From positions 19,655-83,654 of the forward strand of contig CAVVJW010000036.1 of assembly GCA_963748665.1 (NCBI GenBank): DNA of 64,000 bases, written 5' to 3'. The translations under genes were made by a program, and so were the position numbers. The notes under the pieces are model-generated. The model was not told the DNA's origin, made no database searches, and was given only the letters and a program-made list of their open reading frames with translations. This DNA comes from Ignavibacteriota bacterium. Its GTDB lineage: Bacteria > Bacteroidota > Ignavibacteria > Tepidaquicellales > Tepidaquicellaceae. This document shows positions 1 through 32,661 of the stretch, piece after piece; positions within the stretch are counted from its first letter, which is position 1; the number at the start of each line of letters is the position of its first letter.

Positions 1-195
1 GCGCTTGCACTGGAATACCAACTGGCAGCCGACATTGTAGGTACAACTATAGCACCGTCAACTGAACATCTCATCAGATTAGGAGCAATTGCATTAATAC
101 GTACATTTTTAAATTACTTCCTTAACAGGGAAGTGAAAGAAGAAATGGAATTAAGAAAAACAATTATAGAAAAAGGAATGGTGGATGATAAGTAA
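1..195 (+). CDS. 3' end of an upstream membrane-protein gene (DUF1622-like C-terminus), partial at window edge
   Basis: Frame 1 is open from base 1 to TAA at 193-195 (ALALEYQLAADIVGTTIAPSTEHLIRLGAIALIRTFLNYFLNREV...). It is absent from the ORF track because the start lies outside the window. The family call is from memory of the DUF1622 pattern. Confidence 0.4.
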   Translation, partial: ALALEYQLAADIVGTTIAPSTEHLIRLGAIALIRTFLNYFLNREVKEEMELRKTIIEKGMVDDK

Positions 196-300
196 TCCTG
201 GCAAAAGAATACATTATATAGATAAAACAAAATAATACTGTTCCAGTGATTTAAAACAGATCCAAAATACGCTATTTTTAAAATTAAATAAAGAAAAAAC

Positions 301-2723
301 ATGAAAAAAGAAGATTTAAAAAAATCCACAGGAAAAGTAACAGTCGATAATGCACGAGTCGACAGGCTGAAAGAACAGCACATGAGCACGCCTCAGGAGA
401 TTGATAATGAGCGTATAAGGATTATGGCAGAGGTTTACGAAGGTACAGCCGGCTACCAGCAGATTCTCCGAAGGGCTAAATTCTTCGAGCAAGTGATTGA
501 AAGGAAGAAGTTGTACATCGACGAGAATATCATTGTGGGTAGTATGGCAAGTACTGTTAATGGTATTTACACCTATCCTGAATGGAATGTACAATGGATG
601 AAAGAAGAGAATACCGTTGAAAACTCAAAAACCGAAGAGGACCGAAAGGCAAATAAATGGGCACTTGAATATTGGGACAAGTGGGCATTAAGACCACGTG
701 CCGACGAAATCTTTATTAAAAAATATGGTTATGACCCCGATCCTGTTTACCAGTCAGGGCTTGTTGCTGAATTTATGTCGTGGCCCGGTGGCGGCGGTAA
801 CCTCAATTACCCCAGGGTTTATAACGAAGGACTTGCCAGCATGATGGCTGAAGTGAAAGAAAGGCAGATGGCTCTCGATATGCGTTTGCCGAATGCTTCA
901 AAGTTCTATTTCTACGAAGCAAGTCTCATTACCATGAAGGCTGTTATCCGTTTAGCACATCGTTATGCTGAACTGGCCCGCGAAATGGCGGCAAAAGAGA
1001 AGAACGAAACCCGTAAAGCAGAACTTTTAGCTATTGCCGAAACCTGCGAATGGGTTCCGGAACACCCGGCACGCAACCTGCGCGAAGCCATTCAGTGCCA
1101 TTTCCTCTGCCATATCTGTGCCGAAATCGAACAGGTGGGATGCGGATATTCCGAAGCTTACCTGGGCCAGAACTTGGAGCCTTTCTATAAACGCGATCTG
1201 GAAGCCGGTTTAACAAGCCCCGAAGAGGCAACCTATTTATTGAAACTTCTTTTTATAAAGCTGAACGAAATAGGTTATTATTACGGAGCAAAAGTGGCTC
1301 TGCAAAACTCTGCCGACCTGGGTCAGAGTATTTCCCTCGGAGGTTTTACCCTGGATGGTGAAGATGCAACTGCGGCTATGGACTTCCATATCCTTGATGC
1401 TGCAAATTATCTTCATTTGCCACAGCCCCCGCTCACCTGTGTTTACACCGAAAAGATGAGTGGCAAATTCCTGGAAAAGGTTCTCGATGTAATAGGTACG
1501 GGTATCGGAATGCCCCAGTTTGTAAATGGAAATGTGATGATGTTGCGGGCTTTAAACCTATTTGCCGATTCCGAAAAAGGGCTTACACTCGAAAAAGCCA
1601 GACGCACCTGTATCGGAGCTTGTGTAGGAAGTTATATCCCATACGAAACCGGACACCCGGTTGAAGGACAACCAAATCTTGGAAAAGTACTTGAACTTAC
1701 CCTGAACGATGGTTTCGATCCACGTCTGAAAAAACAGATCGGACCAAAGACCGGAAATCCGGAGAAATTTAAAAATTTCGAAGAATTGTATTCAGCCTTT
1801 GAGAAACAACTCCAGTTCTGCGAAGATACGCTGAGAAGAGAAGCCTGGATCGCCAGTATTCTGTGTGCCGAATACCTGCCTGTTACCTGGCGTTCGCTTC
1901 TTACCGGTGGCTGTATTGAAAAAGGCACCGAAGTATGGAATGGAGGAGCCAATTATTACACCGTTGCCCAGATTGTTGTGGGTGGTATTGATGCTTCGAA
2001 CGGGTTAATGGCTGTTAAAAAACTGGTTTACGACGATAAAAAAATAACCATGGCCGAGTTGTTAAAAGCGCTGGCAGCCAACTTTGAAGGAGAATATAAA
2101 CAAATAGGTAAAATGTGTTACGAGGCTCCCAAAGCATGGTAACGACATTCCCGAAATGAACCGTTTCACCCGCAGGGTATATAACTCTATTTACCAGGCA
2201 TTCCAGAATGTAGAAGGAGGAGGTAATTACATCAGCAAAGACATCAAATCGGCACCCGATGCTTATACCAAGAGTATCCACAACCTGATGGGGCTTGGTA
2301 ACCGGGGCATTGCCTACCGGTAAAAAAGCCGGGGTTGCACTTTCCGATGGCAGTTTGTCGGCTATGCCGGGCACCGATGTCAACGGACCTACCGCATTGG
2401 TGATGTCTGCGGCAAAAAGTATGGATTCCATCAAGTTCACTGCAACGCACATGAACATGAAACTCCCTCCTGAACAATTGAAAACACGCAAGGGCAGAGA
2501 AAATGTTCTGAATCTGGTTAAAACCTATTTCGACAATGAAGGTTATCATATTCAGTTCAATGTGCTCGATACCAATATCCTGAGAGATGCGCAAAAACAT
2601 CCGGAAAAATACCGTGACCTGGTGGTTCGTGTAGCCGGTTTCAGCGCCTTCTTCACCAAACTGCACGTGGGCGTGCAGAACGAGGTCATCGAACGGACCC
2701 TGCAGAGTTTCGAACAGCATTAA
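301..2723 (+). CDS. Glycyl radical enzyme (PFL fold), copy 1; frame broken twice as assembled
   Basis: ORFs 301-2142 and 2295-2723 plus a bridging frame 2135-2290 (..PKHGNDIPEMNRF..) reconstruct about 807 aa. Glycyl-radical motif RVAGF at 2628-2642. Cys loop IGACVGSY at 1609-1635. Long conserved blocks are shared with the GRE at 34924-37410 (RYAELAREMAA..IAETCEWVPEHPARNLREA). Breaks at about 2134 and in the G4 run 2290-2293. Confidence 0.9.
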
Positions 2724-2742
2724 GAATTTAAGAAGTTACAAA

Positions 2743-2778
2743 GTAAGGCATGGCGATGTGTCATGCCTTACTTTTTTC
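2743..2778 (+). terminator. Rho-independent-type hairpin directly after GRE1
   Basis: gtaaggcatg (2743-2752) / catgccttac (2762-2771), a 10-bp stem, followed by tttttt. Confidence 0.8.
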
Positions 2779-2818
2779 CGATTAAAAAAGTTTTAGTAAA
2801 AACACTAAAAAATATATT

Positions 2819-3986
2819 ATGAGTACAGATACAGGACAAAAGCGCGTTGCCATTATGGTAGGTGCCGGTTACATTCCCGGAATAAATGCTGTAGTTGCAG
2901 GTGCCTCACTTGCTGCCGGTAAATTAGGATGGGAGTTGGTGGGCATCCTCGATGGATTTGAAGGTATTCTTCATCCCGAAAAATACCCCGAATGGCGGAT
3001 TAATTCCGATCGATCCCCGGAAATTGAACCTCGATCCAAATACAAGCAGTGTTCTGGGCCAGTCGGCACGGATTGATCCGTTCAATGTTCGCACCATCAA
3101 CGAATTGGAAATGGTTGAGGAAGTGGATATGTCGGATGAATTACTGAAAAAATTAAAAGCGGAAAAGATTGATGCAGTTATTTCGATAGTTGGCGGAAAA
3201 GGTATGAGTATTCTTTACCAGCTTCACAAAAAAGGTTTGAATACAGTATGTGTTCCCCGTTCCATCGAAAACGAAATTGCATCCACTTCGGTATCATTCG
3301 GGTTTAACACGGCACTTACTTTTACCATCGATATGCTCGACCGTGCACGCCTGGCGGCAAGGGCTGCCCATAAAATTGCAGTGGTTGAGGTACAGGGAGA
3401 GGAAGCCGGATGGATTGCCTTACAAGCAGGTATTGCAGTTGCTGCCGATGCGGTGCTGATTCCTGAGATTCCGGTGGATCTTAAGCATGTAGCAACACAC
3501 CTGAAAGCTAAGATGTCAGGCAAAAAGTCCTGGGGTTTGGTAGTTGTGGCGCAAGGCGCAAAATTAATCAATCAGAAGAAAAATGAAGAAAAAGTTTCAT
3601 CACTTAAAGCTTCGTTATCGCCACTGGCAACCAGCGATTCCAACAGTGAATACGTGATTCATAAGTCAGGTCAGGCAGCACAGGCTGTGGCTGAAGGATT
3701 GCAACTGCGTATAGCCGAGGAAACTTTTCCGATGGTAATTGGTCCCTGGGTCAGAGGCGGTTCACCTTCGGCGGTCGATCGCCAATTGGGTGTAGCTTAT
3801 GGTGCAGGAGCAATTCAGGCACTGGAAGCCGGCAGTAACGGGGTAATGGTGTCGTTTGTTCCACCTGATGTTAAGTTCGTTCCGCTTGCTGAAGCCATCA
3901 ACAAAGTAAGGACAATACCCGCTGAAAGCATGTTTTTTCAGGTTGCAAATTCACTTGATATTTACTTTGGAAATAAGGAGGCATAA
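2819..3986 (+). CDS. PFK-family (phosphofructokinase-fold) protein with degenerate kinase motifs, paralog A; one frame break
   Basis: ORFs 2819-3076 and 2952-3986 join at the C4 run 2986-2989 (HPEKYP|NGGLIPIDP). PfkA-like core is present: IDAVISIVGG, CVPRSIENEIAST, FGFNTAL, KIAVVEVQGEEAGW, VRGGSPS. But GGD is GAGY, GGDGS is GGKGM and MGR is QGE. Confidence 0.8.
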
Positions 3987-3988
3987 TT

Positions 3989-4945
3989 ATGACAAATCAA
4001 GCAAAAAATATATTGGAGGTAACAGGAACAGTACTGAATATCCAACGGTATTGCAGCCACGACGGTCCCGGCACACGTACAAACGTTTTCATTAAGGGTT
4101 GTTCCCTGCGATGCAAATGGTGCGGAAATCCGGAAAGTATCCGGATGAAGCCGGAAGTTTCGTACGACCCAAAAAAATGTGACGGAAAGAAGTGCAGTAT
4201 TTGTCTGAAAGCACCATTCCCCGAAGGCGGTTTTTATTTTGCAGAGGGTGATGATACAAAGGTAAAAGTCAACTGGCAGTTGGCCGCAGGAGTAAAACTG
4301 GAAATTGCCTCACTTTGCCCCACCGGTGCACTCGAAATGTTTGGTAAAACCATGACCGTTGGAGAAGTAATGGACGAAGTGGAAAAAGACTCCTCCATTT
4401 ACCGAAATACCGGCGGAGGTATGACGATAAGCGGCGGCGAGGTAATGCTTCAGCCGGATTTTGCTGCAGCTTTGCTGCAGGAAGCACACAACCGCGGCAT
4501 TAATACTGCCATTGAAACAGCCTGCAATGCACCATGGTCTTTCCTTGAGAAAGTACTTCCTCATGTTGATACAATGCTTCACGACCTGAAACTGATGAAT
4601 TCAGAACGACATAAAAAATGGACAGGGGTGGGCAACGAGCGAATTCTGGCAAACTTCAAAAAAGCTTATGAAACGTTTCCTGACATAGATTTTATTGCCC
4701 GTACGCCGCTAATTCCCGGTGTAAATGCAGATGAGGAACATATACGTGGTGTACTGGAATTCATAAAACCGCACAAAAACGTGATTGATTACGAATTGCT
4801 GCCCTACCACCGTTTTGGGCTTGGTAAGTATGAATCTCTTGGTGTAGTTTACGAACTCGACGATTACAAAACACCTTCGGATGAAGTAGTAAAAAGGTTT
4901 CAGGCTATGATCGATGAAGCGTTTGGACGGACTCAAGTAAAATAA
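3989..4945 (+). CDS. Glycyl-radical enzyme activating enzyme (radical SAM), copy 1
   Basis: 318 aa. Activase signature CSHDGPGTRTNVFIKGCSLRCKWCGNPE (CX3CX2C), plus an auxiliary Cys cluster CDGKKCSIC...LCPTGA. Starts 2 nt after the paralog A stop. Confidence 0.9.
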   Translation: MTNQAKNILEVTGTVLNIQRYCSHDGPGTRTNVFIKGCSLRCKWCGNPESIRMKPEVSYDPKKCDGKKCSICLKAPFPEGGFYFAEGDDTKVKVNWQLAAGVKLEIASLCPTGALEMFGKTMTVGEVMDEVEKDSSIYRNTGGGMTISGGEVMLQPDFAAALLQEAHNRGINTAIETACNAPWSFLEKVLPHVDTMLHDLKLMNSERHKKWTGVGNERILANFKKAYETFPDIDFIARTPLIPGVNADEEHIRGVLEFIKPHKNVIDYELLPYHRFGLGKYESLGVVYELDDYKTPSDEVVKRFQAMIDEAFGRTQVK

Positions 4946-5009
4946 AAGAAATCAAAACGGAATATTGGTAAAAACAGTAAAATAAAATTTCAGATTAAAA
5001 GGAAATTAT

Positions 5010-6137
5010 ATGATTAAGAATTTAGGTCACGCAGGTACACATAGACGCATTGCTATCAATATTGGGTCAGGGTTCGTCCCGGGAACAAATGCAGTTGTTA
5101 TGGGTGCGGCCATTGCAGGTGGTAAACTGGGGTGGGAGATGATCGGCATCCGGGATGGATTTGAAGGACTTCTTTTTCCAGACCGGTATCCCAATGGCGG
5201 ATTGCTTGCACTCAGCCCCGAACTGATTGAGAACCTCGATCCCGCCACCGGAGGAATCCTTGGCCAGGCGCCAAGAGTTGATCCATTTCATACAACTTCT
5301 TTTAATGGCGGAGAGATTGATTTTTCTGATAAAATATTAACAAGGTTTAAGGAAGCAGACATAGATGCGTTAATTTCAATCGTGGGTGAACAGGGGCTTG
5401 GCATTCTCCAGAATCTGCATCATAAAGGGCTTCATACAGTTTGCATTCCACGTTCGATTGAGAACGACATTGCTTCAACTGCTGTATCGTTCGGGTTTAA
5501 CAGCGCCCTCAGTGTTACTATAGAAATGCTTAATAAGGCTTATCAGGCTGCCAAATCTGCCCGTAAGATTGCAGTAGTGGAAGTTCCGGGTGAGCAGGCA
5601 GGATGGATTGCGTTGCAGGCAGGTATTGCCGTACGTGCCGATGCTGTTCTGATGCCTGAAATTCCGTGCGACCTGAAAAACCTTGCTATGCGATTAAAAG
5701 ACAAAATATCTGACCGTAGGTCTTACGGTCTTGTAGTGGTTGCAGAAGGAGCTAAATTAATTGATTATCCTGAAAACCCTGATGACCAGTCATCCGCAAT
5801 TTCACCGGAAACAATAGCGATTGGCCAAGTGGCTGGCACTGTTGCGTCAAGGCTTCAAAAACTGATAACTGAAGAGACTTATCCGTTGGTAATTGGTGCT
5901 TGGGCAAGGGGTGGGAATCCAACTGCAACTGACCATCAACTTGGGATGGCATACGGCGCGGGATCAGTTCAGGTACTGAAAGCTGGACAAAATGGGGTAA
6001 TGGTATCTTTTATACCACCCGATATCGGATTTGTGCCGCTGAAAAATGTTGTTGACAAAGTGAGAACGGTACCAGCTGAAAGCGAATTTATGAGAATTGC
6101 TCAGTCACTTGGTATCTACCTTGGAAACCGCTTATAA
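5010..6137 (+). CDS. PFK-family protein with degenerate kinase motifs, paralog B (intact)
   Basis: 375 aa. Motifs GSGFVPGTNAVV, IVGEQGLGIL, CIPRSIENDIAST, KIAVVEVPGEQAGW, ARGGNPT. Same architecture as paralogs A, C and D. Confidence 0.8.
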   Translation: MIKNLGHAGTHRRIAINIGSGFVPGTNAVVMGAAIAGGKLGWEMIGIRDGFEGLLFPDRYPNGGLLALSPELIENLDPATGGILGQAPRVDPFHTTSFNGGEIDFSDKILTRFKEADIDALISIVGEQGLGILQNLHHKGLHTVCIPRSIENDIASTAVSFGFNSALSVTIEMLNKAYQAAKSARKIAVVEVPGEQAGWIALQAGIAVRADAVLMPEIPCDLKNLAMRLKDKISDRRSYGLVVVAEGAKLIDYPENPDDQSSAISPETIAIGQVAGTVASRLQKLITEETYPLVIGAWARGGNPTATDHQLGMAYGAGSVQVLKAGQNGVMVSFIPPDIGFVPLKNVVDKVRTVPAESEFMRIAQSLGIYLGNRL

Positions 6138-6163
6138 GCAGAACATGATGTTGTGGATGGAGA

Positions 6164-7420
6164 ATGAAAAAATCTGAACTTAAAGAAACGAAATCAAAAA
6201 GCGACAACTTTAATTCAAAAAGTTTAACGATGGAAAATATCAAAATATCAGAAGATGTTTACGAAAAACTGGCAGATGCGCTTGATGCACTTCCAGCCGG
6301 TTTTACCAGAACTCCCTCTAAATCGGAAATAAAACTTATCAAGATGGTCTTTTCTCTTGAGGAGGCTTTTGTTGCAAGTACTTTAAGCCGCAAGCTCGAG
6401 ACAGCTGACGAAATTGCCAAACGGCTTGTTCTTCCCGTAGATAAAGTGACCGAATTGCTCGAGGGAATGATACCTCGTCGTATGGTAAAAGCTGACACGC
6501 TTGCCCTTGAGACAGGTGTTAAAGGACTTGGGAAAGTAGAAGCAAAACCTGGTCAGACAAAAGAAGAGAGCGTGAAGAAATACAGACTCTTTCCTTTCCT
6601 TGTTGGCTGGTATGAATCGTATCTACAGGAGGTTAAGCCTGAGACTCCAGAATTTGCAAGAATTTTTGAGCAATATGTTATAGAAGGCGGAGGCGAAAAA
6701 ATCTTTGCCCCGCGTCCAGGACCGCAGGGCACCATCCCATACCGTGGCTCTCTAAAACCTGAGTGGCTAAAAAAGGAACCTCACAACGATATTGACGCCC
6801 ACTTCCAGCGGCACGACCGTTTCCTTGTACTCGATTGTGTGTGCAAGAAAGAGAAAGCTGCTGCTCACGGACATAGCTGCCACATGCCCAACAAGCGATG
6901 TGGTTTCGTAGGTATGCCTCCCGTGGTTCCTCTCTCTGAAAATGTGCTAAATCGCGAAGAAGCCATCAAACTCTGGAATGAGTTAGATGCCATGGGAACA
7001 ATGATGATTCAGGGTTTCTATGGATTCACAATGGGAGCGGAGGAACCTCAGTTCGTCGGCGGCTGTCACTGCTGCGGTTGTTGCTGCACAATATTGCAGG
7101 GAGGTCGTATGGGCAAACTTACTGAATCTGTTGAGAGATCGAATTACCGTGTAGTGAAGGATTATGACAAATGTACAAACTGCGGGGAGTGTATCAGGCG
7201 CTGCCAGTTCTTTGCACATAAATGGGAAAAAACTAAAGATGGAAAAATATCGGTTTATGACAGAGATAAATGCGTCGGATGTGGATCCTGCGGTCAGGGA
7301 TGTTTATCGGGTGCGCTCCACCTTGAACCGGTTTCCGAGGAGGAATGGTTACAAGTTCCTTCAAGTTTTATTGGATGGGAAGAAGCGCGATTAAAGAATA
7401 TGGGAATGATTAAGGAATAA
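6164..7420 (+). CDS. Cys-rich Fe-S protein 1 (N-terminal helical domain plus C-terminal 2x[4Fe-4S] ferredoxin motifs); family unassigned
   Basis: CTNCGECIRRC...CVGCGSCGQGC (two CX2CX2CX3C motifs). Additional CVCKKE..C..C and CHCCGCCC (7064-7087) clusters. The N-terminus DVYEKLADALDALPAGF is shared with 10150-11275. The true start may be ATG 6230 (MENIKISEDVY). Confidence 0.7.
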   Translation: MKKSELKETKSKSDNFNSKSLTMENIKISEDVYEKLADALDALPAGFTRTPSKSEIKLIKMVFSLEEAFVASTLSRKLETADEIAKRLVLPVDKVTELLEGMIPRRMVKADTLALETGVKGLGKVEAKPGQTKEESVKKYRLFPFLVGWYESYLQEVKPETPEFARIFEQYVIEGGGEKIFAPRPGPQGTIPYRGSLKPEWLKKEPHNDIDAHFQRHDRFLVLDCVCKKEKAAAHGHSCHMPNKRCGFVGMPPVVPLSENVLNREEAIKLWNELDAMGTMMIQGFYGFTMGAEEPQFVGGCHCCGCCCTILQGGRMGKLTESVERSNYRVVKDYDKCTNCGECIRRCQFFAHKWEKTKDGKISVYDRDKCVGCGSCGQGCLSGALHLEPVSEEEWLQVPSSFIGWEEARLKNMGMIKE

Positions 7421-7524
7421 AATAATATTAATTCAAAACAAATATAAGACCTGAATAATCAGATATAGTTTTATAAAAATTACACCTATTAAATAAAGGA
7501 TCATTAAATAAAAAGAGAAATGTT

Positions 7525-7602
7525 ATGATTAAAACGCCTTTGGATGAAGTAGTAAAAAAGTTTCAGGCTATGGTTGACGAGGCATTTGGAAGAATTACTT
7601 AA
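7525..7602 (+). pseudogene. Relic of the 3' end of a GRE-activase gene
   Basis: MIKTPLDEVVKKFQAMVDEAFGRIT* matches the activase-1 C-terminus YKTPSDEVVKRFQAMIDEAFGRTQVK. Nucleotide similarity to 4866-4945 is visible (ggatgaagtagtaaaaa.gtttcaggctatg). Confidence 0.7.
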
Positions 7603-7660
7603 AACATTTCAACATCAATAAATTAAATAAAAGTCCATACCTTGTCAGAGTTGATTGACA

Positions 7661-7682
7661 GGGCAGGGCTCAATAACAAAAA
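7661..7682 (+). promoter_or_regulatory. Candidate shared cis-element (22-mer), copy 1, 36 nt upstream of permease 1
   Basis: gggcagggctcaataacaaaaa matches 14259-14280 (ggccaggtctgaataacaaaca) at 19 of 22 positions. Confidence 0.25.
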
Positions 7683-7717
7683 GGCAGGTTTGAATTTGTA
7701 TAATAATATTAAAAAAA

Positions 7718-8596
7718 ATGACAGTTAGCACCATTTTTAATGTTGTAGTTATAATCTACTCGATGTCCAATTTGGCTTCACTGGGGATGGAACTCAATAT
7801 ACGTGAAACCATCAGGTCGCTGAGCAACTTCAGGCTTATCATTTTTATCTTGTTTTTCGGTTGGATTGCAGGACCGGTTTTTGCACTACTTCTTGCAAAA
7901 GTCCTTCCGATGGATACTTCCTACGGCACAGGACTGATTATTTCCAGCCTTGCTCCGGTTGCACCGTTCTTTCCAATTCTGATGCGAAAATCAAACTCAG
8001 ATAAAGACTTTGCGGGCGCACTAATGCCATTAGCCATGGTTGCCACGGTGGTCCTGCTGCCTTTAATTGGTTCATTTATGATTAAGGGCCTTACGGTTAA
8101 TATGTGGTCTTTGGCCAAACCACTTCTACTGTTGATATTGTTGCCGCTTGTTAGTGGAATTTTGCTAAGATTGTATGCAATCCGTTTTACCGACAAAATT
8201 TTTCCTGCTATGAAGCGTCTTGCCGGTATCACTACTTTGATTGCAATGCTTTTTGTACTGGTACTTTATTTTCCTGACTTCATCAGTATACTCGGTAGTT
8301 TTGCCATTGGCGCTCACATTATCTTTGTGTTCGGAATTATGTTTATTTCGTATTACTTAAGCTTCGGTCTAAAAAAGAATCAGGCCAGTGCCATAGCCTT
8401 GGGTATGGGTAGCAGGAATCCTGCCGCAATGCTGGTAGTGTATATGGCCTTACAAATCACAGATCCAAAGATGTTGCTCATGATACTGCTTGCTGGTCCG
8501 ATACCGGGAATTGCATCCTATTTTATGACAAAATATTTTGGTTCAAAAAACGTTAAAAAACAATTTATAAAATCCAAAAATGTAGAAAATTATTGA
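7718..8596 (+). CDS. BASS/ACR3-fold (bile acid:Na+ symporter family-like) permease 1
   Basis: 292 aa, polytopic. Contains LGMELN..., SSLAPVAPFFP and GMGSRNPAAML patterns typical of the SBF/BASS fold. Paralog of 11333-12211. Confidence 0.55.
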   Translation: MTVSTIFNVVVIIYSMSNLASLGMELNIRETIRSLSNFRLIIFILFFGWIAGPVFALLLAKVLPMDTSYGTGLIISSLAPVAPFFPILMRKSNSDKDFAGALMPLAMVATVVLLPLIGSFMIKGLTVNMWSLAKPLLLLILLPLVSGILLRLYAIRFTDKIFPAMKRLAGITTLIAMLFVLVLYFPDFISILGSFAIGAHIIFVFGIMFISYYLSFGLKKNQASAIALGMGSRNPAAMLVVYMALQITDPKMLLMILLAGPIPGIASYFMTKYFGSKNVKKQFIKSKNVENY

Positions 8597-8856
8597 ATAT
8601 GGAGAAAACGGGATTAAGCTTCAAAGCAAAATTAAAATTTTATACTTGTAAGGGCAGTGGTGATTGTATAAAGGCATGTCCTGAGAAAGCAATAAGTGAA
8701 GGTCCTCAGCGTATGCCTTCAGCAGTATGTCTTTCCAGCGGAAAGTATGAGATGTTACCAGGGAGAGCGATTATTGATGAAAACAAATGTACAGGTTGTG
8801 GTGATTGTGTACCGGTATGCCCTAATCATGCAATTGAAATGGCAGCAGTGTCATAG
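8593..8856 (+). CDS. Small 2x[4Fe-4S]-type ferredoxin
   Basis: CTGCGDCVPVCP and CKGSGDCIKACP motifs. The track start TTG 8593 overlaps the permease stop. ATG 8599 is the more likely start. Confidence 0.65.
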   Translation: MNMEKTGLSFKAKLKFYTCKGSGDCIKACPEKAISEGPQRMPSAVCLSSGKYEMLPGRAIIDENKCTGCGDCVPVCPNHAIEMAAVS

Positions 8857-8952
8857 GGATATTATTTATGGTCAGCCGATAAATATACTTCGGTTGGCTG
8901 AATTCTGAACTTTTAGATTATTACAGAATAAAGAAAGGGATAGAAAATTATT

Positions 8953-10153
8953 ATGATTAAACATGTTGGACACGGGGGTATTATCCGCCGCATTGCGATA
9001 AATGTAGGTGCAGGATATCTTCCGGGAATAAATACCATTATTACAGGAGCCTCCCAGGCAGCCGGTCAGTTGGGATGGGAGATTGTCGGAATCCGCGATG
9101 GCTTCGAAGGCTTGTTGCACCCTGATCGTTATCCTGATGGCGGATTGCTTACACTCAGCCCACAATTGGCTGCAATACAGGATCCCTCCGAAGGAGGCAC
9201 TCTTGGCCAGGCACCAAAGGTAGATCCGTTTAACGACACCACTCATAATAAAGATGGCGTTGATCATTCTGATGAAATATTAAAAAGGCTGAAAGAAGAA
9301 AACATTGACGCATTAATTTCAGTTGTTGGGAACCAGGGACTCGAGATCCTGTATAAGCTCTCATCGAAAGGGATTACATACGGTATGTATTCCAAAATCA
9401 ATAGAGAATGACATTCCTGTTACTTCGGTTTCTTTTGGATTTAACAGTGCGATGAGCTTTACGATAGAAATGCTGATGCGTGCCAGACAAGCGGCAATAT
9501 CTGCCAGAAAGATAGCTGTGGTGGAAGTAATAGGTGAGCATGCAGGGTGGTTGGCACTCCAGTCAGGTATAGCAATTTCTGCTGATGCGGTGTTGCTGCC
9601 GGAAATACCTTGTAATCTTAATATGCTGGCACGGAGGCTGGACGAAAAGATTTCTTCCAGGAGACCATACGGATTGGTAGTAGTTGCCGAAGGCGTAAAA
9701 CTATACAAAAAACCACAGGAAGTTAAATCTGATTCAACACGTATAGTTTCACTTCCACCGGAGGCAACCGGCGAAGCAAGTGAACAAGTAATGATTACGT
9801 CTGAAAAGACAGCCGAGACACTTGCAGGGGAACTCCAGTTGCTTATTGACAGAGAAACTTATCCACTTATTGTCGGACCATGGGCAAGAGGCGGATCGCC
9901 CACTGCCGTTGACCTGCAACTGGGTATGGCATATGGTGCAGGGGCTATTCAGGCATTGAAAGCCTCAAAGAATGGGGTAATGGTTGCTTTTGTCCCTCCT
10001 GAAATTCAATACGTGCCATTGGAAGAAATAATTAACAAAGTAAGAACCGTTTCTGCCAACAGTGAATTCCTGAAGATTGCAGGATCACTTGGTATCTATT
10101 TCGGAAACTTTTCTTCAAAGAAAACTTTACAATCAGAGGAGGTAAAAAAATGA
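8953..10153 (+). CDS. PFK-family protein with degenerate kinase motifs, paralog C; one frame break
   Basis: ORFs 8953-9411 and 9323-10153 join at the G3 run 9370-9372 (LSSKG|LHTVCIPKSIENDIPVT). Motifs GAGYLPGINTII, VVGNQGLEIL, VVEVIGEHAGW, ARGGSPT. Confidence 0.8.
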
Positions 10154-11275
10154 ACAATTCCGATATATCAATAGATGTTTACGAAAGACTTGCCAATGTA
10201 CTGGATGCAACGCCTCAGGGCTTTCCAAGGATGAAATCAGGCGTGGAAATAAAACTGCTCAGGCTGGTTTTTTCTCCCGAGGAAGTTTCTCTTGCAAGTT
10301 ACCTGTCCACAACCTATGAATATCCTGCTGTAATTGCCAGACGTGCTGGCATTGGTGAGGATGATGCCATCGTTATATTATCAGGCCTTATTTCAAGGAA
10401 ACTTGTTCGTATGCAAGGTCCGCCATCTTACCCGGGTATGCCTGCTCCCCCTCCCGGAAAAGATTCGCTCTTCCGGCTTGGTCCTTTTATGATAGGATGG
10501 TACGAAGCATGTATGCGTGTAGAAGGCAAAGAATTTGCCGAACTATTTCATCAATATATGGAAGAGGGTGGCAGTGAAAAAATCCTCGCTCCACGTCCCG
10601 GTGTATTAGGTGTAGTTCCCGTACGGGGATCTCTCAAGCCAGAATTGATGGCAACGATGGAACCGCACCTCGATATTGACGCTCATTTAAAGCGGCACGA
10701 TCGTTTTCTGGTAATGGATTGTGTGTGTAAAAGGGAGATGGAGGCCCTTGGGAAAAGATGATAGCCGCTATCCGTTAAAACGCTGCGGATTTTTAGGACT
10801 TCCTTCAAGTGTACCGCTCGGAGAACATGTACTCAGCCGGGAAGAAGCGGACCAGCTTCTTCGAAAGCTCGAAAAAATGGGGCATGTAAGCAATGCAGCT
10901 TACGGATTTCAGATGAGCGCTGAAAGCCCGCAGTACGTGGGGGGCTGCAACTGTGACCGTTACGCTTGCGGGGTATTTAACAATCACTTTCCCAGCCAGG
11001 CTTCAAACTACCGCGTAGTCAAAGACTACAAAAAATGTACTGCCTGTGGTATTTGTATCGATCGCTGTCCCACGTATGCGCATATCGATGGTAATCGTGA
11101 GGACGGTATGCCGGAATATATTCGCGAAAAGTGCATAGGTTGTGGTGTCTGCGTTATTGCGTGCGATCCTGAGGCGCTTGAATTGGAGCCGGTATCGGCA
11201 GACGAGTGGTTTTATACTCCTTCAAGTTTGGAGGAATGGGAAGAACTACGAATTAAAAATTTGGAAACAAAATAA
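10150..11275 (+). CDS. Cys-rich Fe-S protein 2 (paralog of 6164-7420); one frame break
   Basis: ORFs 10150-10761 and 10721-11275 join at the A4 run 10753-10756 (CVCKREMEALGK|DDSRYPLKRCGF). CTACGICIDRC...CIGCGVCVIAC. The ATG overlaps the paralog C stop (ATGA). Confidence 0.7.
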
Positions 11276-11332
11276 TTTATTTATAAAAATTGAATCAAAC
11301 ACAAATAAAATAATAATTTTAAAAAATAGATA

Positions 11333-12211
11333 ATGGACAATTTCATTCAAATTTGTACCTCTTTATTCGGTCCGGTGGTATTAATATTCACCGTATCTAA
11401 CCTGTTTGCCATGGGCTTACAAGTAAAAATGCCCGAAGTCCTCCAAGTGTTTAAAAACAAAAAATCACTTTTGTTGATATTCATATGGGGCTGGATAGCA
11501 GGGCCTGCGTTAGCTTGGCTTATAAAAATAATTCTTCCTTTGGAAGAGCCATACGTTATAGTATTATTACTCGCCAGTCTGGCACCAAGCGCACCATTCC
11601 TTCAGGTGATGGTTGTAAAAAGCCGCGGGGACATGGGCTTTGCAGGAGCTTTCATACCGCTGGTTGCAGTTGGTACTGTTGTGCTGATGCCATTGATGGC
11701 TCCCCTATTAATAAAGGGACTGACAATCAGCACCTGGGCACTCGCTAAACCGCTACTCCTGACCATACTTATACCGCTGATCATCGGAGCTGCGATAAGG
11801 AATTATTCAGATAAAGTTGCAACTAAGATTTTCCCGGCATCTAAGCTGATTGCCCTTATTTCCACATTAACGACTATCATGTTGTGCTTTATAATATACG
11901 GTCCAGCGATGCTCAACACGGCGGGCAGCTTTGCCCTCCTGTCAATAACACTGTTTATGGTAGTAATGGGACTGATAACTTATCGCTTCGGTTTCGGCCT
12001 GAAACGGGCACAGAGTAGTGTGATGTCACTGGGAATGGGCACTCGTAATATCGCAGCGGTTTTAGCCGGAGCTCTTGCCATTCCAAACGCTGATCCGCGT
12101 ATAGTAACTATGGTTATTATGTACACTTTGTGGTCCTTTATACTTGCCCTTATTGTAGCTAATATTTATGGTAGACTCGCAGACAAGTCAGGTGAAACAA
12201 ATGAGAATTAA
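11333..12211 (+). CDS. BASS/ACR3-fold permease 2
   Basis: 292 aa. Collinear with 7718-8596 (ASLAPSAPFLQ, GMGTRNIAAVLAG). Confidence 0.55.
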   Translation: MDNFIQICTSLFGPVVLIFTVSNLFAMGLQVKMPEVLQVFKNKKSLLLIFIWGWIAGPALAWLIKIILPLEEPYVIVLLLASLAPSAPFLQVMVVKSRGDMGFAGAFIPLVAVGTVVLMPLMAPLLIKGLTISTWALAKPLLLTILIPLIIGAAIRNYSDKVATKIFPASKLIALISTLTTIMLCFIIYGPAMLNTAGSFALLSITLFMVVMGLITYRFGFGLKRAQSSVMSLGMGTRNIAAVLAGALAIPNADPRIVTMVIMYTLWSFILALIVANIYGRLADKSGETNEN

Positions 12212-12562
12212 AGTATATAGTTAAGAGTGAAAACGTGCACAAAATGATAATGAAAGAATTCCACCACTTAGGCACTAAGGACACGACGTAGCAAGAACTT
12301 TAAACAAAGAAAAGATTTGCATACTGAAAAGAGACAATTGTGACTGAATTATACTGATTAAGAGGTTTTTAGGGTTAGAGATTAATTGAATACGGATTTA
12401 CACAGATTTAACGAATATACACTGATTTTAAAGGTTTAAAAATATAAATTTATTAATTGTTACATAGAAAATTAGAGAAGAGATATAAATGAATTACACG
12501 AATTTTACGATTTACATAAATTGGAAGAACGAATCGCAAGTGATTTATTTGAGTTTTAATAA

Positions 12563-13666
12563 ATGAAAATAAAGCAAAAAAAAATTATGATTAAGCAAAC
12601 TCAGGACAACTCAGTTTATGATATTACCATAAGACTATTAATCCTTTTATTAATCGTTGCCTGGTGTCTGATGATTATATATCCATTTATCAGTGTCATA
12701 TTATGGAGTCTTATACTCGCACTGGCAATGCATCCGTACCACAGCAAACTGTCAAAAAAAATGGGCGGGAAACCCAAACTTGCATCTTTTATAATAGTTG
12801 TCTCCATTCTGATAATTGTTATACTTCCCACGGGTCTATTAATTTATTCACTTGCTGACGAAGTTAAGGCATTTAAAGCAAATTATTTTAACGGTACAAT
12901 CATCATTCCTCCTCCCACAGAAAACGTTAAAGAATTTCCAATAATCGGAGGAAAACTTTTTGAGTTCTGGCAAAATTTATCTGCTAACATAGAACCAATG
13001 CTGATTAAGTATAAGACACAACTTTTAGATATTGGAATCAAGGTAGGAAAGGGAATATTGAGTGCGGCAGGCAGTGTAATTCAGATTTTATTGTCTCTTA
13101 TTATTGCCGGTATATTGTTGAATGTCGGCGGAATAGGAGAATCTATACGAAAATTTTTCAGGAAGGTGGGCGGCAATAAAGGTGACGAACTTGCTGACCT
13201 TACGCTCAAGACAGTCGGCAGTGTAGTTAAAGGCATTCTTGGAGAAGCACTCCTTCTCGCTCTGATGCACGGAGTTGTTTTCATGCTTGCAGGCATTCCC
13301 TATGCAGGAATATGGACGTTGGCGGTGTTTGTCATGGCGACACTTCAAATACCAATATATTTTGTAACAGTACCAATAATGATTTATATTTTTGGGACGA
13401 AAGATTTAATGCCTGCGATATTATGGGTCTCGACCATGGTAGCGGTCAGTGCTTCAGACAACTTTCTCACACCGCTTATGCTTGGTAAACGTGCTCCTGT
13501 ACCAATGCTGGTGATATATATAGGCGTGATTGGCGGATTCATTTTTTCTGGTTTTATAGGACTTTTTACGGGAGCAATAGTTATGTCAGTTGGTTATAAT
13601 TTATTTGTCGGATGGATTAATTCAAACGATGCGGAAGTTCAGGAAATAGAGGCAGTAAATAAATAA
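12563..13666 (+). CDS. AI-2E family (PerM/UPF0118) transporter
   Basis: 367 aa, polytopic. The C-terminal pattern SDNFLTPLMLGKRAPVPMLVIYIGVIGGFIFSGFIGLFTGAIV is typical of the family. Confidence 0.75.
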   Translation: MKIKQKKIMIKQTQDNSVYDITIRLLILLLIVAWCLMIIYPFISVILWSLILALAMHPYHSKLSKKMGGKPKLASFIIVVSILIIVILPTGLLIYSLADEVKAFKANYFNGTIIIPPPTENVKEFPIIGGKLFEFWQNLSANIEPMLIKYKTQLLDIGIKVGKGILSAAGSVIQILLSLIIAGILLNVGGIGESIRKFFRKVGGNKGDELADLTLKTVGSVVKGILGEALLLALMHGVVFMLAGIPYAGIWTLAVFVMATLQIPIYFVTVPIMIYIFGTKDLMPAILWVSTMVAVSASDNFLTPLMLGKRAPVPMLVIYIGVIGGFIFSGFIGLFTGAIVMSVGYNLFVGWINSNDAEVQEIEAVNK

Positions 13667-13692: not shown

Positions 13693-14205
13693 ATGATGAA
13701 AATAAAAGAAAATTTACCTGAAGGAAAACAAACAGTACTTGGGCTTTATGTAACAGCGAAGGAAGCTTACGAGCAATGGATTGAAAATCCAGAGAAGATA
13801 AAGATTATTGACGTTCGCACTCCCGAAGAATTTATTTTTGTGGGTTATCCGGCGATGGCATGGAAAATTCCTGTTGGTACACAATCGTATGTCTGGGATG
13901 CTGAAAATGAAAAGTTCCCGATGTGTCTTCTGCCTGATTTTGTTTCCAGAGTGAAGGAAATTGCAAAACCAACTGATACAATAATGGTCACGTGCCGTTC
14001 AGGAGGACGAAGCGCAATTGCAGTCAATCTGCTTGCCAAAGAAGGATTCACACAGGCATTTAACGTTGTTGACGGCATAGAAGGTGATTTGGTGGATGAT
14101 GAAACCAGCGTATTTCATGGGCAGAGACTGAAGAATGGCTGGAAGAATTCAGGATGTCCTTGGACGTTTAAACTGACACCCGACATGTTGATACTTCCGC
14201 GATAA
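13693..14205 (+). CDS. Single-domain rhodanese (sulfurtransferase)
   Basis: 170 aa. Contains IIDVRTPEEF and the active-site loop CRSGGRS. Confidence 0.8.
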   Translation: MMKIKENLPEGKQTVLGLYVTAKEAYEQWIENPEKIKIIDVRTPEEFIFVGYPAMAWKIPVGTQSYVWDAENEKFPMCLLPDFVSRVKEIAKPTDTIMVTCRSGGRSAIAVNLLAKEGFTQAFNVVDGIEGDLVDDETSVFHGQRLKNGWKNSGCPWTFKLTPDMLILPR

Positions 14206-14329: not shown

Positions 14330-15530
14330 ATGAGCAAAGAAACTGAAAAAGTTAAAGTTACAACTTTTGAAAACACAAAGTTGAACGTGGTTAAGTTGAA
14401 TTGGAAAGAGGTGTATTACACCAATTGTCCGCTGGTGTCTGCCAGTAACGTGGATGAAGGCCTGGGCCTGACCAAGAAAGAGTATAAGAAGATCGGGGTG
14501 AAGTTTGCCTACATGCGTTCGACCCCTGAAACCGATTGGTATCCCCACTACATTCACAATCAGGAAAATCTTATCCGCTTCGGTGGTTTGTTTCCACCTA
14601 TCGAAGTCCACGCAGATATCCGTCGGACCAAACTTCTGGGGGTAACACAGATGCCGGCCGAAGGCGGCGTTATGATGGTACGCGCCAAGGACGATATCTA
14701 CCGGATGGCTGATTTAAAAGGCAAAAAGATCGGCATTTCCAAGAGTATGAACCAGATCAAAAACGACTGGTGGCGCATTCAGGAACACCAGGGGATCGAG
14801 TTGATGCTTCGGATGAACGGCATGACCATGGACGATATTGAATTGGTTGAGTTTCCTTACGCAGATGACTGGTATAATCTACCGGAAATGATGAAAGCAA
14901 CCATGGAACAATCGATTGATCTGTGGCTGGCGCGTGACCACAAGCGCGACCTGGCTTTCCGTCCGCTGGAAACCGCCCTGGAAAAAGGAATCATCGATGC
15001 GATGTACATGCAAACCAAGCCGCTTCAGCAGGTCATCTGAGGCGACGGGTAAGTTTGCAGCAATCGAGGACCTCTCCCGCTATCCTGACTGGCGCCTTCA
15101 GGTGGCTAACATTCCTGCGGCTATCACGTGTACCGATGTCATGGCCAAGGAACACCCTGAACTCGCTGTTACATTTATGAAAGGTATGATCCGGGCCGGT
15201 CGCTGGGCAAATCAGAACAAGTATGCTGCAGCTGAAATTCTCGACCAGCAGACCTTCTACCGCGACATCGAGGCTACTTACCAGGGCATTAGAGATGTTG
15301 ACCTGGTGCCCAACCTTTCACCTTTGAATCTCGCCGCTGTTAATATCGGTAAAGAATTTATGCTAAGTCATGGTTACATCAAGAATGATTTTGATGTAAA
15401 CGAATGGGCTGCCCCTGAATTCCTGGAAAAAGCAGCAAGAGAATTATTGGAAGAAGAATGGAAGAAACGATCAACGGCAAAACTTCCACAAACAGCAGGA
15501 ACATTGGAATCAGGCGGAAGAATTGGGTAA
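14330..15530 (+). CDS. DszB-like (2'-hydroxybiphenyl-2-sulfinate desulfinase family / SsuA-fold) protein; one frame break
   Basis: ORFs 14330-15040 and 14916-15530 join at about 15038. Recalled Rhodococcus DszB blocks match: YTNCPLVSA (YSNCPVPNA), IRFGGLFPPI (TRFGGEIPPL), TKLLGVT, DLKGKKIGISKS (DLAGRRIGVSAS), EATGKFAAIEDL, NEWAAPEFLEKA (DQWAAPEFLNNS). Confidence 0.65.
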
Positions 15531-15917: not shown

Positions 15918-16727
15918 ATGAGTGTAGAAATCAAAACAGATAGTTTTTCAACGATACTGGTTGACAGGAGAGATAACGGATTGGTAGTAGTAACACTAAA
16001 CAGACCAGAAGAAGGTAACGCCGTTAACACAGATATGGGGCTTGAACTTCTTGATCTCTGGACTGACCTTGTACGCAACAATGACGGACTCCGCTGCGTC
16101 ATATTAACCGGAGCAGGTGAAGAAGCATTTTGTGCCGGCGGAGATATGAAGCAACGAAAAGGAATGTCGGAATATGCATGGCGGCATCAACACGAGATAT
16201 TCGAGCAAGCTTTATGGACTATGATGGAATGTCCTGTTCCGGTCATAGCTGCTGTCAACGGCAAAGCATTTGGCGGCGGGCTTGAAATGATTCTTGCAGC
16301 CGATTTTGCATATGGAGTTGACAATGCCAAGTTATGGTTCCCGGAAGTGATGATAGGAATACTGCCTGGTGTGGGCGGCACAACTACATTGCCGCGTATA
16401 GTTGGAGAGCATCGTGCTAATGAAATCATATTAGCAGGTGGTGCATTTGGTTCTGCCGAAGCGCTGGAATGGGGTATATTCAATCGTGTTTGCAGTATAA
16501 AAGAATTGATGCCGGCTGCGATTGCAACTGCCGAAACTATAGCAGGTAACGCTCCTCTGGCAGTGCGTCAAGCCAAGAAAGCAATACACGAAGGTCTGCA
16601 AATGGATGTACGTACTGCACTTCGTTACGAAGTCGAATGTTACAACCGTCTGACGGGAACTGAAGACAGAGCAGAAGGTACACTGGCATGGAACGAAAAA
16701 CGCAAACCCGTTTTTAAAGGACGGTGA
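15918..16727 (+). CDS. Enoyl-CoA hydratase/isomerase (crotonase) family protein
   Basis: 269 aa. Contains NRPEEGNAVN, FCAGGDMK and AAVNGKAFGGGLEMILAADFAY. Confidence 0.85.
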   Translation: MSVEIKTDSFSTILVDRRDNGLVVVTLNRPEEGNAVNTDMGLELLDLWTDLVRNNDGLRCVILTGAGEEAFCAGGDMKQRKGMSEYAWRHQHEIFEQALWTMMECPVPVIAAVNGKAFGGGLEMILAADFAYGVDNAKLWFPEVMIGILPGVGGTTTLPRIVGEHRANEIILAGGAFGSAEALEWGIFNRVCSIKELMPAAIATAETIAGNAPLAVRQAKKAIHEGLQMDVRTALRYEVECYNRLTGTEDRAEGTLAWNEKRKPVFKGR

Positions 16728-23338: not shown

Positions 23339-23462
23339 ATTAAATGTATAAATAAATGAAATATCTTTTAAATTATTCAGAAAGGAAATTTAAATATGAA
23401 ATTAAATGTATATATTAATGAAATATCTTTTAAATTATTCAGAAAGGAAATTTTAATATGAA
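23339..23462 (+). repeat. 62-bp tandem duplication of the sulfatase RBS/start region
   Basis: 23339-23400 and 23401-23462 are near-identical (attaaatgtata.ata.atgaaatatcttttaaattattcagaaaggaaattt.aatatgaa). Each copy carries an ATG (23396 and 23458). Confidence 0.85.
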
Positions 23463-31715: not shown

Positions 31716-32661
31716 TTAATTATTTTTTCTGCCAAACGCTTCATCTATGATTGATTGAAGATGTGCAAGCGATTCCTGTGTTGGCGGTTGAAAATCAGCT
31801 AACTCATATACCTGCCCAAGATATCCGTATTTTGTTTCTCCGAAACGCATATAAGGCAGTAACTCATAATCAACTACATTCTTATAAGGTTTTATGAATT
31901 CCAGCACGGCGCGAACGTGCTCTTCATCATCATTCACACCTGGTATTATCGGTGTGCGTGCGATGAACTTCTTATCAGGAAATGTCTCGTAAGCTCTTCT
32001 TTGATTTTCAAGAATTCGTTTGTTATCAACACCTGTCCATTTTTTGTGGCGTTCAGGAATTGTACATTTGTGATCGTGAAGCACGAAATCTACATGAGGT
32101 AATACTTTTTCTACGAAAGACCAGGGAACATTGAAAGCTGTTTCGATTGCAGTATTAATTCCACGACCATGTGCTTCTTTAAGAAGTGCAGATGTGAAAT
32201 CAGGCTGAACTAGACATTCTCCGCCGCTGAACGTCAATCCACCGCCTGATTGCCTGTAAAAGCTGCAATCTGCTTCCACCTCGGCAAGTACTTCATGAAC
32301 AGTCATAAGTTTGCCAAACATACACAGCGCCTGTGTCGGACAAGCCGAAATGATTTCTTCAGAGCAATCGGATGCAAGATCCCAGTTCACTTTAATTTTA
32401 TCATCTTCACCATCTGTTGCGTAAAATGCTCCTTCAGGAAAGGGAGGCTTCAGACAAAGTCCGCATTGTTTCGCGCCTATGCATTTCGCGGGATTATATG
32501 CAAGCTCAGATTTTAGTTTAATGCTCTCAGGGTTACTGCACCATTTGCACCTGAGCGAACACCCCTTCAAAAACACAGTGGTTCGGATGCCGGGCCCGTC
32601 GTGCAGACTGAAATGTTGTACATTCAGAACGATTCCTTATTGGTTGATCTTTTGTGCTCAA
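31716..32661 (-). CDS. Glycyl-radical enzyme activating enzyme, copy 2; 5' end uncertain or frame-broken
   Basis: Track ORF 31716-32576 begins inside the conserved motif. The same frame continues upstream as GIVLNVQHFSLHDGPGIRTTVFLKGCSLRCKWC up to a TAA at 32637-32639. A TTG at 32661 (shifted by one base, overlapping the PFK-fold D stop) would give MSTKDQPI.. if there is one break near 32638. Confidence 0.75.

Follow-up and report, generated by a model that had tools for sequence, protein, structure and literature searches.

The Locus and Its Question

The locus described here raises a question of function: what do four genes of the phosphofructokinase (PFK) fold do beside genes for Fe-S proteins and glycyl radical enzymes (GREs)? 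It lies in a 64,000-nucleotide stretch of DNA from an Ignavibacteriota bacterium (assembly GCA_963748665.1, contig CAVVJW010000036.1, positions 19,655 to 83,654 of the forward strand). This whole stretch is called the window, and positions are counted from its first letter. Proteins of this kind carry the public name "6-phosphofructokinase" (JGI, NCBI). The original prediction, made from the letters alone, held that the window encodes four PFK-fold paralogs (copies A to D) that have lost the ATP/Mg motifs and are each followed by a gene for an Fe-S enzyme. Our leading, tentative reading is that these PFK-like proteins are non-kinase, PFK-fold partner subunits of [4Fe-4S] proteins in GRE systems. 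This helper role is suggested by the lost kinase residues, the conserved new residues, the monophyly of the proteins, and their strict and tight gene pairing.

Four PFK-Like Genes in the Window

A tblastn search of all 64 kb with copy B recovered exactly four PFK-like loci, and the Pfam family PF00365 matched the same four only, which bears out the proposed four-member family. The coordinates first given for A, B, and C were accurate, and the end of copy D was off by one base (32659). Copies A and C are 56–63% identical to copy B, and the pieces of copy D are approximately 40–55% identical to it. PF00365 matched copy B with E = 1.4e-59 and 202 bits (cutoff 30.9) over profile positions 1–276 of 277, and also matched the fragments of A, C, and D. 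The best Protein Data Bank (PDB) matches of copy B, both by sequence and by Foldseek, were PFKs.

The same protein scored well under the cutoffs of the specific NCBIfam PFK models. The best of these was TIGR02483, the "mixed-substrate" PFK model (240 vs. 430 bits), followed by NF010674 (208 vs. 544), NF002872 (208 vs. 253), and TIGR02482 (142 vs. 371), while the models of pyrophosphate (PPi)-dependent PFKs gave 33–93 bits against cutoffs of 273–588. The PFK-like clade of GRE systems is probably an offshoot of the "mixed-substrate" group that lacks canonical ATP- or PPi-dependent kinase function.

All of the motif changes listed in the original prediction were present in the translations and in alignments to PDB entry 1zxx and Escherichia coli PfkA. 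GGDxPGxN has become GAGYIPGIN in A, GSGFVPGTN in B, GAGYLPGIN in C, and GGGFVPGIN in D. The equivalents of GGDGS are GGKGM (A), GEQGL (B), GNQGL (C), and EGRSL (D); TIDND is replaced by SIENE in A and SIEND in the other three; and MGR by QGE (A), PGE (B), IGE (C), and PGA (D).

Remodelling of the Active-Site Cleft

Per-site conservation was investigated in an alignment of 58 intact relatives from related loci, eight more distant representatives, 12 true PFKs, and E. coli PfkA. Residues are numbered by the E. coli literature convention, with Met1 uncounted. The substitutions seen in the window were shared by the 66 relatives. D12 was lost in all but one of them, becoming Tyr, Phe, or His, and D103 was lost in all 66, mostly to Gly, Asn, or Ala (also Val); Glu occurs at this position in copy B of the window only and is therefore not conserved. 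G104 has become Lys, Arg, or Gln, so the Asp104 marker of PPi-type enzymes is absent from the clade, and S105 has become Gly. Position 124, Gly in E. coli, is Arg or Lys, and T125 has become Ser. D127, the catalytic base and an Asp in all 12 true PFKs, was replaced by Glu in 63 of the 66 relatives and in all four window copies. R171 was lost in nearly all relatives, mostly to Glu (also Ala or Gln). Among the ligands that hold the 6-phosphate of fructose-6-phosphate, R162 has become Lys, R243 has become Tyr or Phe, and H249 has become Pro, Ser, or Ala; R243 and H249 were lost in every relative, and R252 was largely kept. The arginines of the classical effector site, R21 and R25, were lost in the clade, and retention of that site for sensing ADP or phosphoenolpyruvate was rejected on this ground. 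The 12 true PFKs, at 30–38% identity, retain every canonical residue.

Other parts of the site persist. G11, R72, N128, D129, and G170 were also largely kept, as was E222, except for a Gln in 13 of the 22 A-type copies. On the adenine side (positions 41, 73, 77, 82, 107, 108, and 111), divergence from E. coli was no greater than in true PFKs. The proposal that the phosphoryl-donor and Mg ligands are gone therefore stands for D103, R171, and the change of D127 to Glu, and does not extend to G11, R72, or the adenine side. The accompanying proposal of a partly retained sugar-phosphate pocket agrees with the pattern at R162, R243, H249, and R252. Judged by these residues, the Mg-triphosphate and phosphoryl-transfer machinery and half of the 6-phosphate pocket are lost, and the site is not erased as a whole.

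The residues that replaced the canonical ones are themselves conserved. V101, C121, S125, and E127 were each conserved in at least 95% of the clade, and because of this the change in the cleft is best read as selected remodelling rather than erosion. Since the cleft loop formed by S125, E127, and N128 reaches the same level, the cleft may bind a ligand or may have a new catalytic function. The near-invariant Val101 and Cys121 are specific to the clade and adjoin the former ATP-phosphate pocket. Cys121 is the single conserved cysteine of these proteins (~375–400 residues), which contain no cluster motif. An inserted segment near residues 255–290 carries a conserved SLSP motif in types A, C, and D and is far shorter in type B.

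Pairing with Activases and Fe-S Proteins

In the window, a PFK-like gene lies directly upstream of a gene for a GRE activase or an Fe-S protein in four of four cases. The stop of copy A (3986) is 2 nucleotides from the start of activase 1 (3989), and the stop of copy B (6137) is 26 nucleotides from the start of the FeS1 open reading frame (ORF) at 6164, although homologues suggest Met23 at 6230 as the true FeS1 start. Copy C and FeS2 overlap by ATGA at 10150–10153. Copy D and activase 2 overlap by TTGA at 32662–32659, and activase 2 is frameshifted a few codons later. These are the spacings originally predicted, and they are correct as the ORFs stand. The broader claim that an Fe-S enzyme gene follows each copy also held, and can be sharpened: the partner is either a GRE activase or a new Fe-S protein of approximately 395 residues.

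The adjacency was conserved elsewhere, across phylum labels and GRE types. All 57 intact PFK-like copies, from 48 genome loci, lay directly upstream of an activase gene (22 copies) or of a gene for the ~395-residue Fe-S protein (35 copies), and the same pairing was found in 25 metagenome loci. Estimated gaps ranged from −4 to +13 nucleotides before activases and from −7 to +152 nucleotides, with a median of 33, before Fe-S proteins. The usual order in related loci is GRE1, PFK, activase, (ferredoxin), PFK, FeS1, (PFK, FeS2), SBF transporter, and the minimal form is GRE1, PFK, activase, FeS. The order GRE, short-chain dehydrogenase/reductase (SDR), PFK, activase found around copy D recurred in four loci (L074, L076, L077, and L080). 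Two loci of true PFKs recovered in the same scan (L049 and L050) had no adjoining Fe-S protein gene.

Distant members of the clade, at 42–52% identity, were directly upstream of an activase in four contexts, including a Competibacteraceae metagenome-assembled genome (MAG) and a Thermodesulfobacteriota MAG, and overlapped the activase start in L078 and L080. Their neighbourhoods are of three kinds and otherwise differ: one contains an SDR and a GH63-like gene, another an aconitase-X and an AAE transporter, and in L078 a distance of 5 kb separates the GRE gene from the PFK-like/activase pair. Because these neighbourhoods share only that pair, the conserved unit is the PFK-like gene with the activase, and not the PFK-like gene with a particular GRE or pathway.

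Partner Proteins

Both activases in the window contain the radical-SAM motif CSLRCKWC (SAM, S-adenosylmethionine), and the activases of related loci form a tight group at 59–90% identity. The number of cysteines in their ferredoxin-like insert varies, with four in activase 1, four to five in the activases of GRE1 cassettes, and all eight in those of the basal-type cassettes (compared were window 3989–4945, L077:9177-10139, and L078:9170-10141). Four to five insert cysteines are enough for one auxiliary cluster.

The FeS1 family has 18 conserved cysteines, arranged as CxC..C..C, CHCCGCCC, and two ferredoxin motifs. FeS1 matched only Fer4 families, at residues 330–385 of the 418-residue ORF, which corresponds to a C-terminal 2x[4Fe-4S] ferredoxin domain. 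Its N-terminal ~300 residues gave no Pfam match even at E ≤ 10 and no PDB match by sequence or profile. Both ORF pieces of FeS2 align with this family. Cassettes hold one to three FeS1-family paralogs, some without a PFK-like gene of their own. Between the Fe-S protein and the activase, only the ferredoxin-like two-cluster domains aligned (hhalign probability 96%), and the idea that the Fe-S protein is a degenerate activase was rejected on this profile-profile comparison.

Phylogeny and Distribution

A search of 1.84 billion cluster representatives recovered a few divergent clusters with the E127 signature at 42–57% identity, and below these, from approximately 38% identity downward, true PFKs. 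In a neighbor-joining tree the E127 clade was monophyletic and stood beside the mixed-substrate PFKs. The basal members precede activases in HpsG-like contexts. The derived group comprises the A type, which partners the activase of the GRE1 cassette, and the B and C types, which partner Fe-S proteins.

Intact orthologs of every type were found in dozens of MAGs at 55–89% identity, with their motifs conserved. Homologues of copy B at 66–89% identity came from MAGs labelled Bacteroidales, Chloroflexia, delta-proteobacteria, Acidobacteriota, Verrucomicrobiota, Actinomycetes, Aminicenantes, and NC10. Across loci L002–L047, cassette proteins were 66–89% identical in MAGs labelled as at least seven phyla. 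This distribution suggests that the cassette has spread laterally, perhaps recently, or else some binning noise. A plasmid collection yielded true PFKs only, all below 35% identity.

A Proposed Partner-Subunit Model and Its Alternatives

The mechanism that we propose would begin with an ancestral pairing of a PFK-like protein with a GRE-activating radical-SAM enzyme, as in copies A and D. Duplication inside the GRE1 cassette would then have produced the B and C paralogs, each paired with a new multi-cluster Fe-S protein. The PFK-fold protein would retain the oligomeric body of PFKs, together with a remodelled, conserved cleft, and would dock the ferredoxin-like cluster domain common to the activase and the Fe-S protein. 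Docking could organise or gate the passage of electrons from a ferredoxin or FNR-like reductase to the Fe-S protein and on to the activase, where the radical-SAM cluster would be reduced ahead of glycyl-radical installation. This gating may be tuned by a small anionic ligand bound in the cleft. PFKs are tetramers whose active sites lie at the subunit interfaces, and so, more speculatively, hetero-oligomers of A, B, and C could bring activase and Fe-S proteins together. In its strongest form, the proposal would make a PFK-fold pseudoenzyme an obligate third component of widespread GRE activation systems, providing ligand-gated electron delivery through the ferredoxin-like domain, a version that we consider doubtful.

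Several points weigh against a partner subunit. We infer the physical complex, the electron gating, and the ligand from sequence, and the loop S125-E127-N128-D129 with R72 and R252 would suit a new catalytic activity too. All related loci were retrieved via the PFK-like protein, so the pairing was counted from the PFK-like side only. Pairs of PFK-B and Fe-S protein genes without a GRE or activase within 10 kb occur in L013 and L029, and because of these loci the PFK-B/Fe-S pair may have a job unrelated to GRE activation. The sole apparent PFK–activase fusion, P0487 (L076:4032-5864, 610 residues), is probably an artefact, its ORF ending in a frameshift in a long-read sample, and it was not counted as evidence. 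The structure model of copy B was poor, with a predicted local distance difference test score (pLDDT) of 58.8 and Foldseek matches at a template modelling score of ~0.33 to PFKs only. The FeS1 model was similarly poor (pLDDT 61.4), and Foldseek recovered from it only ferredoxin domains. The alignments behind both predictions were shallow, at 38 sequences, mostly more than 70% identical.

The main alternative, which we regard as fairly unlikely, is that the PFK-like proteins are still enzymes whose remodelled site acts on some other small molecule of the pathway. In such a site E127 would be the base, new metal ligands would come from E171 or D129, and R72, K162, and R252 would hold an anion. 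Candidate substrates include sugars (sulfonated or deoxy), C3 sulfonates, and adenosyl by-products of radical-SAM chemistry. The near-invariance of S125, E127, and N128 and the broad retention of D129, R72, K162, and R252 speak for this reading. Two of the four 6-phosphate ligands have been lost, with aromatic residues among the replacements, which would fit a group that bears a single charge, for instance a sulfonate. The surroundings also hint at organosulfur chemistry, since GRE2 is HpsG-like and a cytosolic SsuA-like protein, rhodanese, and SulP are encoded there. Against it, the gene tracks the activase or Fe-S protein rather than a GRE type or pathway, the three distant neighbourhoods having only the PFK-like gene and activase in common. 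The Mg ligand D103 and the transition-state residue R171 are lost, the cassettes yielded neither a sugar isomerase nor an aldolase, and two to three paralogs per cassette, each with its own Fe-S partner, are hard to fit to a single metabolic step. Less probable still is a pure metabolite sensor, a PFK-type allosteric body that would bind a glycolytic or pathway metabolite and switch the activase or Fe-S protein without taking part in electron transfer. In its favour are the classic allosteric behaviour of the PFK tetramer, the regulatory role that catalytically dead subunits of the PFK family have elsewhere, and the conserved cleft; the effector-site residues R21 and R25 are lost, however, and regulation in the cassettes already has proteins of its own, a LuxR-PAS protein and a histidine kinase with a GAF domain. 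Sequence alone does not separate this sensor from the partner subunit.

Decay was also weighed, given the state of several reading frames. Copy B has no frame change, A and C have one each, and D has four. Single frame changes also occur in GRE1, FeS2, the SsuA-like gene, activase 2, and probably the sulfatase region at 23458–25830. The stretch at 31.7–33.8 kb, which holds copy D and activase 2, has five frame changes, and the adjoining GRE2 and SDR genes are free of them. One long-read MAG project supplied the nearest relatives, whose loci were fragmented in the same way in tblastn searches. Because the frame changes are spread across many of the window's genes and across the loci of these sister MAGs, most are probably long-read indel errors. 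Functionless, decaying pseudogenes or assembly artefacts would account for the broken frames, and for the substitutions that D carries at otherwise conserved positions (R252 appears to be replaced, within VQAGG). Such an explanation is very improbable for the family, since B is intact and every type has intact orthologs with its motifs kept. Only copy D, where the damage is densest and conserved positions are also substituted, could be a real pseudogene. Ordinary divergent ATP- or PPi-dependent phosphofructokinases, the identity implied by the public label and by the strong Pfam match, are the least probable explanation of all, and barely credible. The best score (240 bits) falls short of cutoffs of 430, 544, and 253; D103, R171, R243, and H249 are replaced, D127 is Glu, and Asp104 is absent, and the nearest true PFKs keep all of those residues.

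Glycyl Radical Enzymes and the Surrounding Genes

On the plus strand, the order is GRE1, PFK-A, activase 1, PFK-B, FeS1, SBF transporter, ferredoxin, PFK-C, FeS2, and a second SBF transporter. On the minus strand it is GRE2, SDR, PFK-D, activase 2 (Table 1). A promoter and terminator scan of positions 1–12700 gave counts indistinguishable from those of shuffled sequence and is uninformative. The window also contains fragmented genes of the sulfatase family (23458–25830), a SulP/STAS sulfate permease (48872–50233), and a 767-residue multihaem cytochrome with TPR repeats (52097–54400).

Table 1. Coordinates of the PFK-like genes, their partners, and neighbouring genes in the window.
Feature	Position	Strand	Remarks
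GRE1, glycyl radical enzyme, uncharacterised subfamily	301–2723	+	split by frameshift/stop near 2142–2295
PFK-like copy A, activase-partner type	2819–3986	+	PF00365 on both pieces; frame change near 2990
Activase 1, radical-SAM GRE-activating enzyme	3989–4945	+	TIGR02494 313 bits vs. cutoff 174; CX3CX2C
PFK-like copy B, Fe-S-protein-partner type	5010–6137	+	intact, 375 residues; PF00365 E = 1.4e-59
FeS1, undescribed Fe-S protein of ~395 residues	6164–7420	+	418-residue ORF; probable start 6230; 18 conserved Cys
SBF/BASS-family transporter	7718–8596	+	PF01758 E = 5e-14; family recurs in related loci
Small 2x[4Fe-4S] ferredoxin	8593–8856	+	NCBIfam ferredoxin-type matches
PFK-like copy C, Fe-S-protein-partner type	8953–10153	+	PF00365 on both pieces; frame change near 9370
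FeS2, FeS1 paralog (48–50% identity)	10150–11275	+	pieces 10150–10761 and 10721–11275; frame change near 10740
Second SBF/BASS/ACR3-like transporter	11333–12211	+	weak TIGR00841 and TIGR00832 matches; kept in related loci
Rhodanese	13693–14205	+	Pfam/NCBIfam
Cytosolic SsuA/NMT1-like protein	14330–15530	+	frameshifted (14916–15040); Pfam/NCBIfam
Enoyl-CoA hydratase	15918–16727	+	Pfam/NCBIfam
CoA-disulfide-reductase-rhodanese fusion	16787–18496	+	Pfam/NCBIfam
Activase 2, GRE-activating enzyme	31716–32662	-	67% identity to activase 1, residues 13–314; TTG start
PFK-like copy D, activase-partner type, basal group	32659–33825	-	tblastn pieces; four frame changes
SDR oxidoreductase between GRE2 and copy D	33871–34686	-	NCBIfam SDR families
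GRE2, HpsG-like glycyl radical enzyme	34924–37410	-	intact, 828 residues; NF048011 965 bits vs. cutoff 1000; Cys loop GCCE

GRE1 scored far under the cutoffs of its best NCBIfam models (HypD, 327 vs. 1100 bits), and its best PDB match was CutC, at only 401 bits. An intact ortholog at L001:5247-7661 has the glycine motif RVAGFCAFF and the Cys loop GACVGT. The loop GACVG[S/T] of GRE1 has no Glu at Cys+2, unlike CutC, glycerol dehydratase, HypD, and the IslA-type eliminases.

Genes in the related loci would provide the activase with SAM and electrons from within the cassette. They encode a SAM synthetase in 14 loci and an FNR-like FAD/NAD reductase in 10, and in 14 loci the gene for a small ferredoxin immediately precedes a PFK-like gene (examples of such supply genes are L034:13897-15090 and L031:6495-7322). 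Besides the LuxR-PAS and GAF histidine-kinase regulators, two unknown protein families recur in the cassettes. Sulfur-related genes also recurred: rhodanese in 12 related loci, the CoA-disulfide-reductase-rhodanese fusion in 21, the SsuA/NMT1-like protein in 19, and SulP in 11. No N-terminal signal was noticed by eye in the translation of the SsuA/NMT1-like protein. These recurrent genes, together with the SBF transporters, suggest an organosulfur substrate. Taken with the supply genes and the Cys loop of GRE1, they point to an uncharacterised GRE pathway, possibly an organosulfur one, that draws on SAM and electrons of its own.

Comparison with Known Systems

A full-text literature search found no description of a PFK-like partner family, and no paper on a GRE/activase pair with a PFK-like gene between its members. 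What is new here is a PFK-derived accessory family in GRE operons, which we propose with a mechanism that we infer. Hundreds of metagenomic and MAG proteins of the clade bear the label "6-phosphofructokinase", and any pathway reconstruction that counted them would wrongly credit their organisms with a glycolytic step. GRE activation is usually described as requiring only an activase, SAM, and a generic low-potential reductant; an additional protein that is conserved and translationally coupled suggests that a layer of control or of electron supply has gone unrecognised. If the partner-subunit reading is true in its strongest form, the PFK-like protein would put a glycolytic fold to a new use and would be the first accessory factor known to be dedicated to GRE activases. 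Its gene appears to have moved from one GRE type to another and among MAGs that carry different phylum labels. The system also brings a GRE subfamily that lacks the customary catalytic Glu and a new family of multi-cluster Fe-S proteins, and its neighbouring genes hint at an anaerobic metabolism of organosulfur compounds in soils and sediments.

Among PFKs, the clade is closest in kind to the mixed-substrate group of TIGR02483, which comprises ATP- or PPi-dependent PFKs of actinomycetes and relatives. The two share the PF00365 fold at 30–38% identity over the full length, the same length class, a Lys or Arg at position 124, and the C-terminal region. The clade differs in lacking D12, D103, G104, T125, D127, R171, R243, and H249, and in having V101, C121, S125, and E127, the SLSP segment (A, C, and D), and an Fe-S neighbour gene. 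Non-catalytic PFK units occur elsewhere, namely the alpha subunit of plant PPi-PFK and the regulatory C-terminal half of eukaryotic PFK. The PFK-like proteins resemble these in having lost catalytic residues and in probably serving a partner. The plant and eukaryotic units, however, pair with a catalytic PFK and regulate glycolysis, whereas the partner here is a radical-SAM activase or a multi-cluster Fe-S protein, and the PFK-like operon contains no catalytic PFK.

Accessory subunits are also found with GREs, such as the beta and gamma subunits of benzylsuccinate synthase and the gamma subunit of 4-hydroxyphenylacetate decarboxylase, and like the PFK-like proteins these are extra proteins encoded in GRE operons. 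Those subunits are small, bind Fe-S clusters, and bind the GRE itself; the PFK-like protein, in contrast, has approximately 380 residues and one conserved Cys, and its gene tracks that of the activase and not that of the GRE. The nearest counterparts of the enzymes themselves are the GRE/activase pairs of the HpsG/HpsH type and the PFL2 family, with GRE2 scoring 965 bits on the HpsG model and the activases reaching the cutoff of the GRE-activase model. To our knowledge, the characterised pairs of these types are two-gene units without a PFK-like gene.

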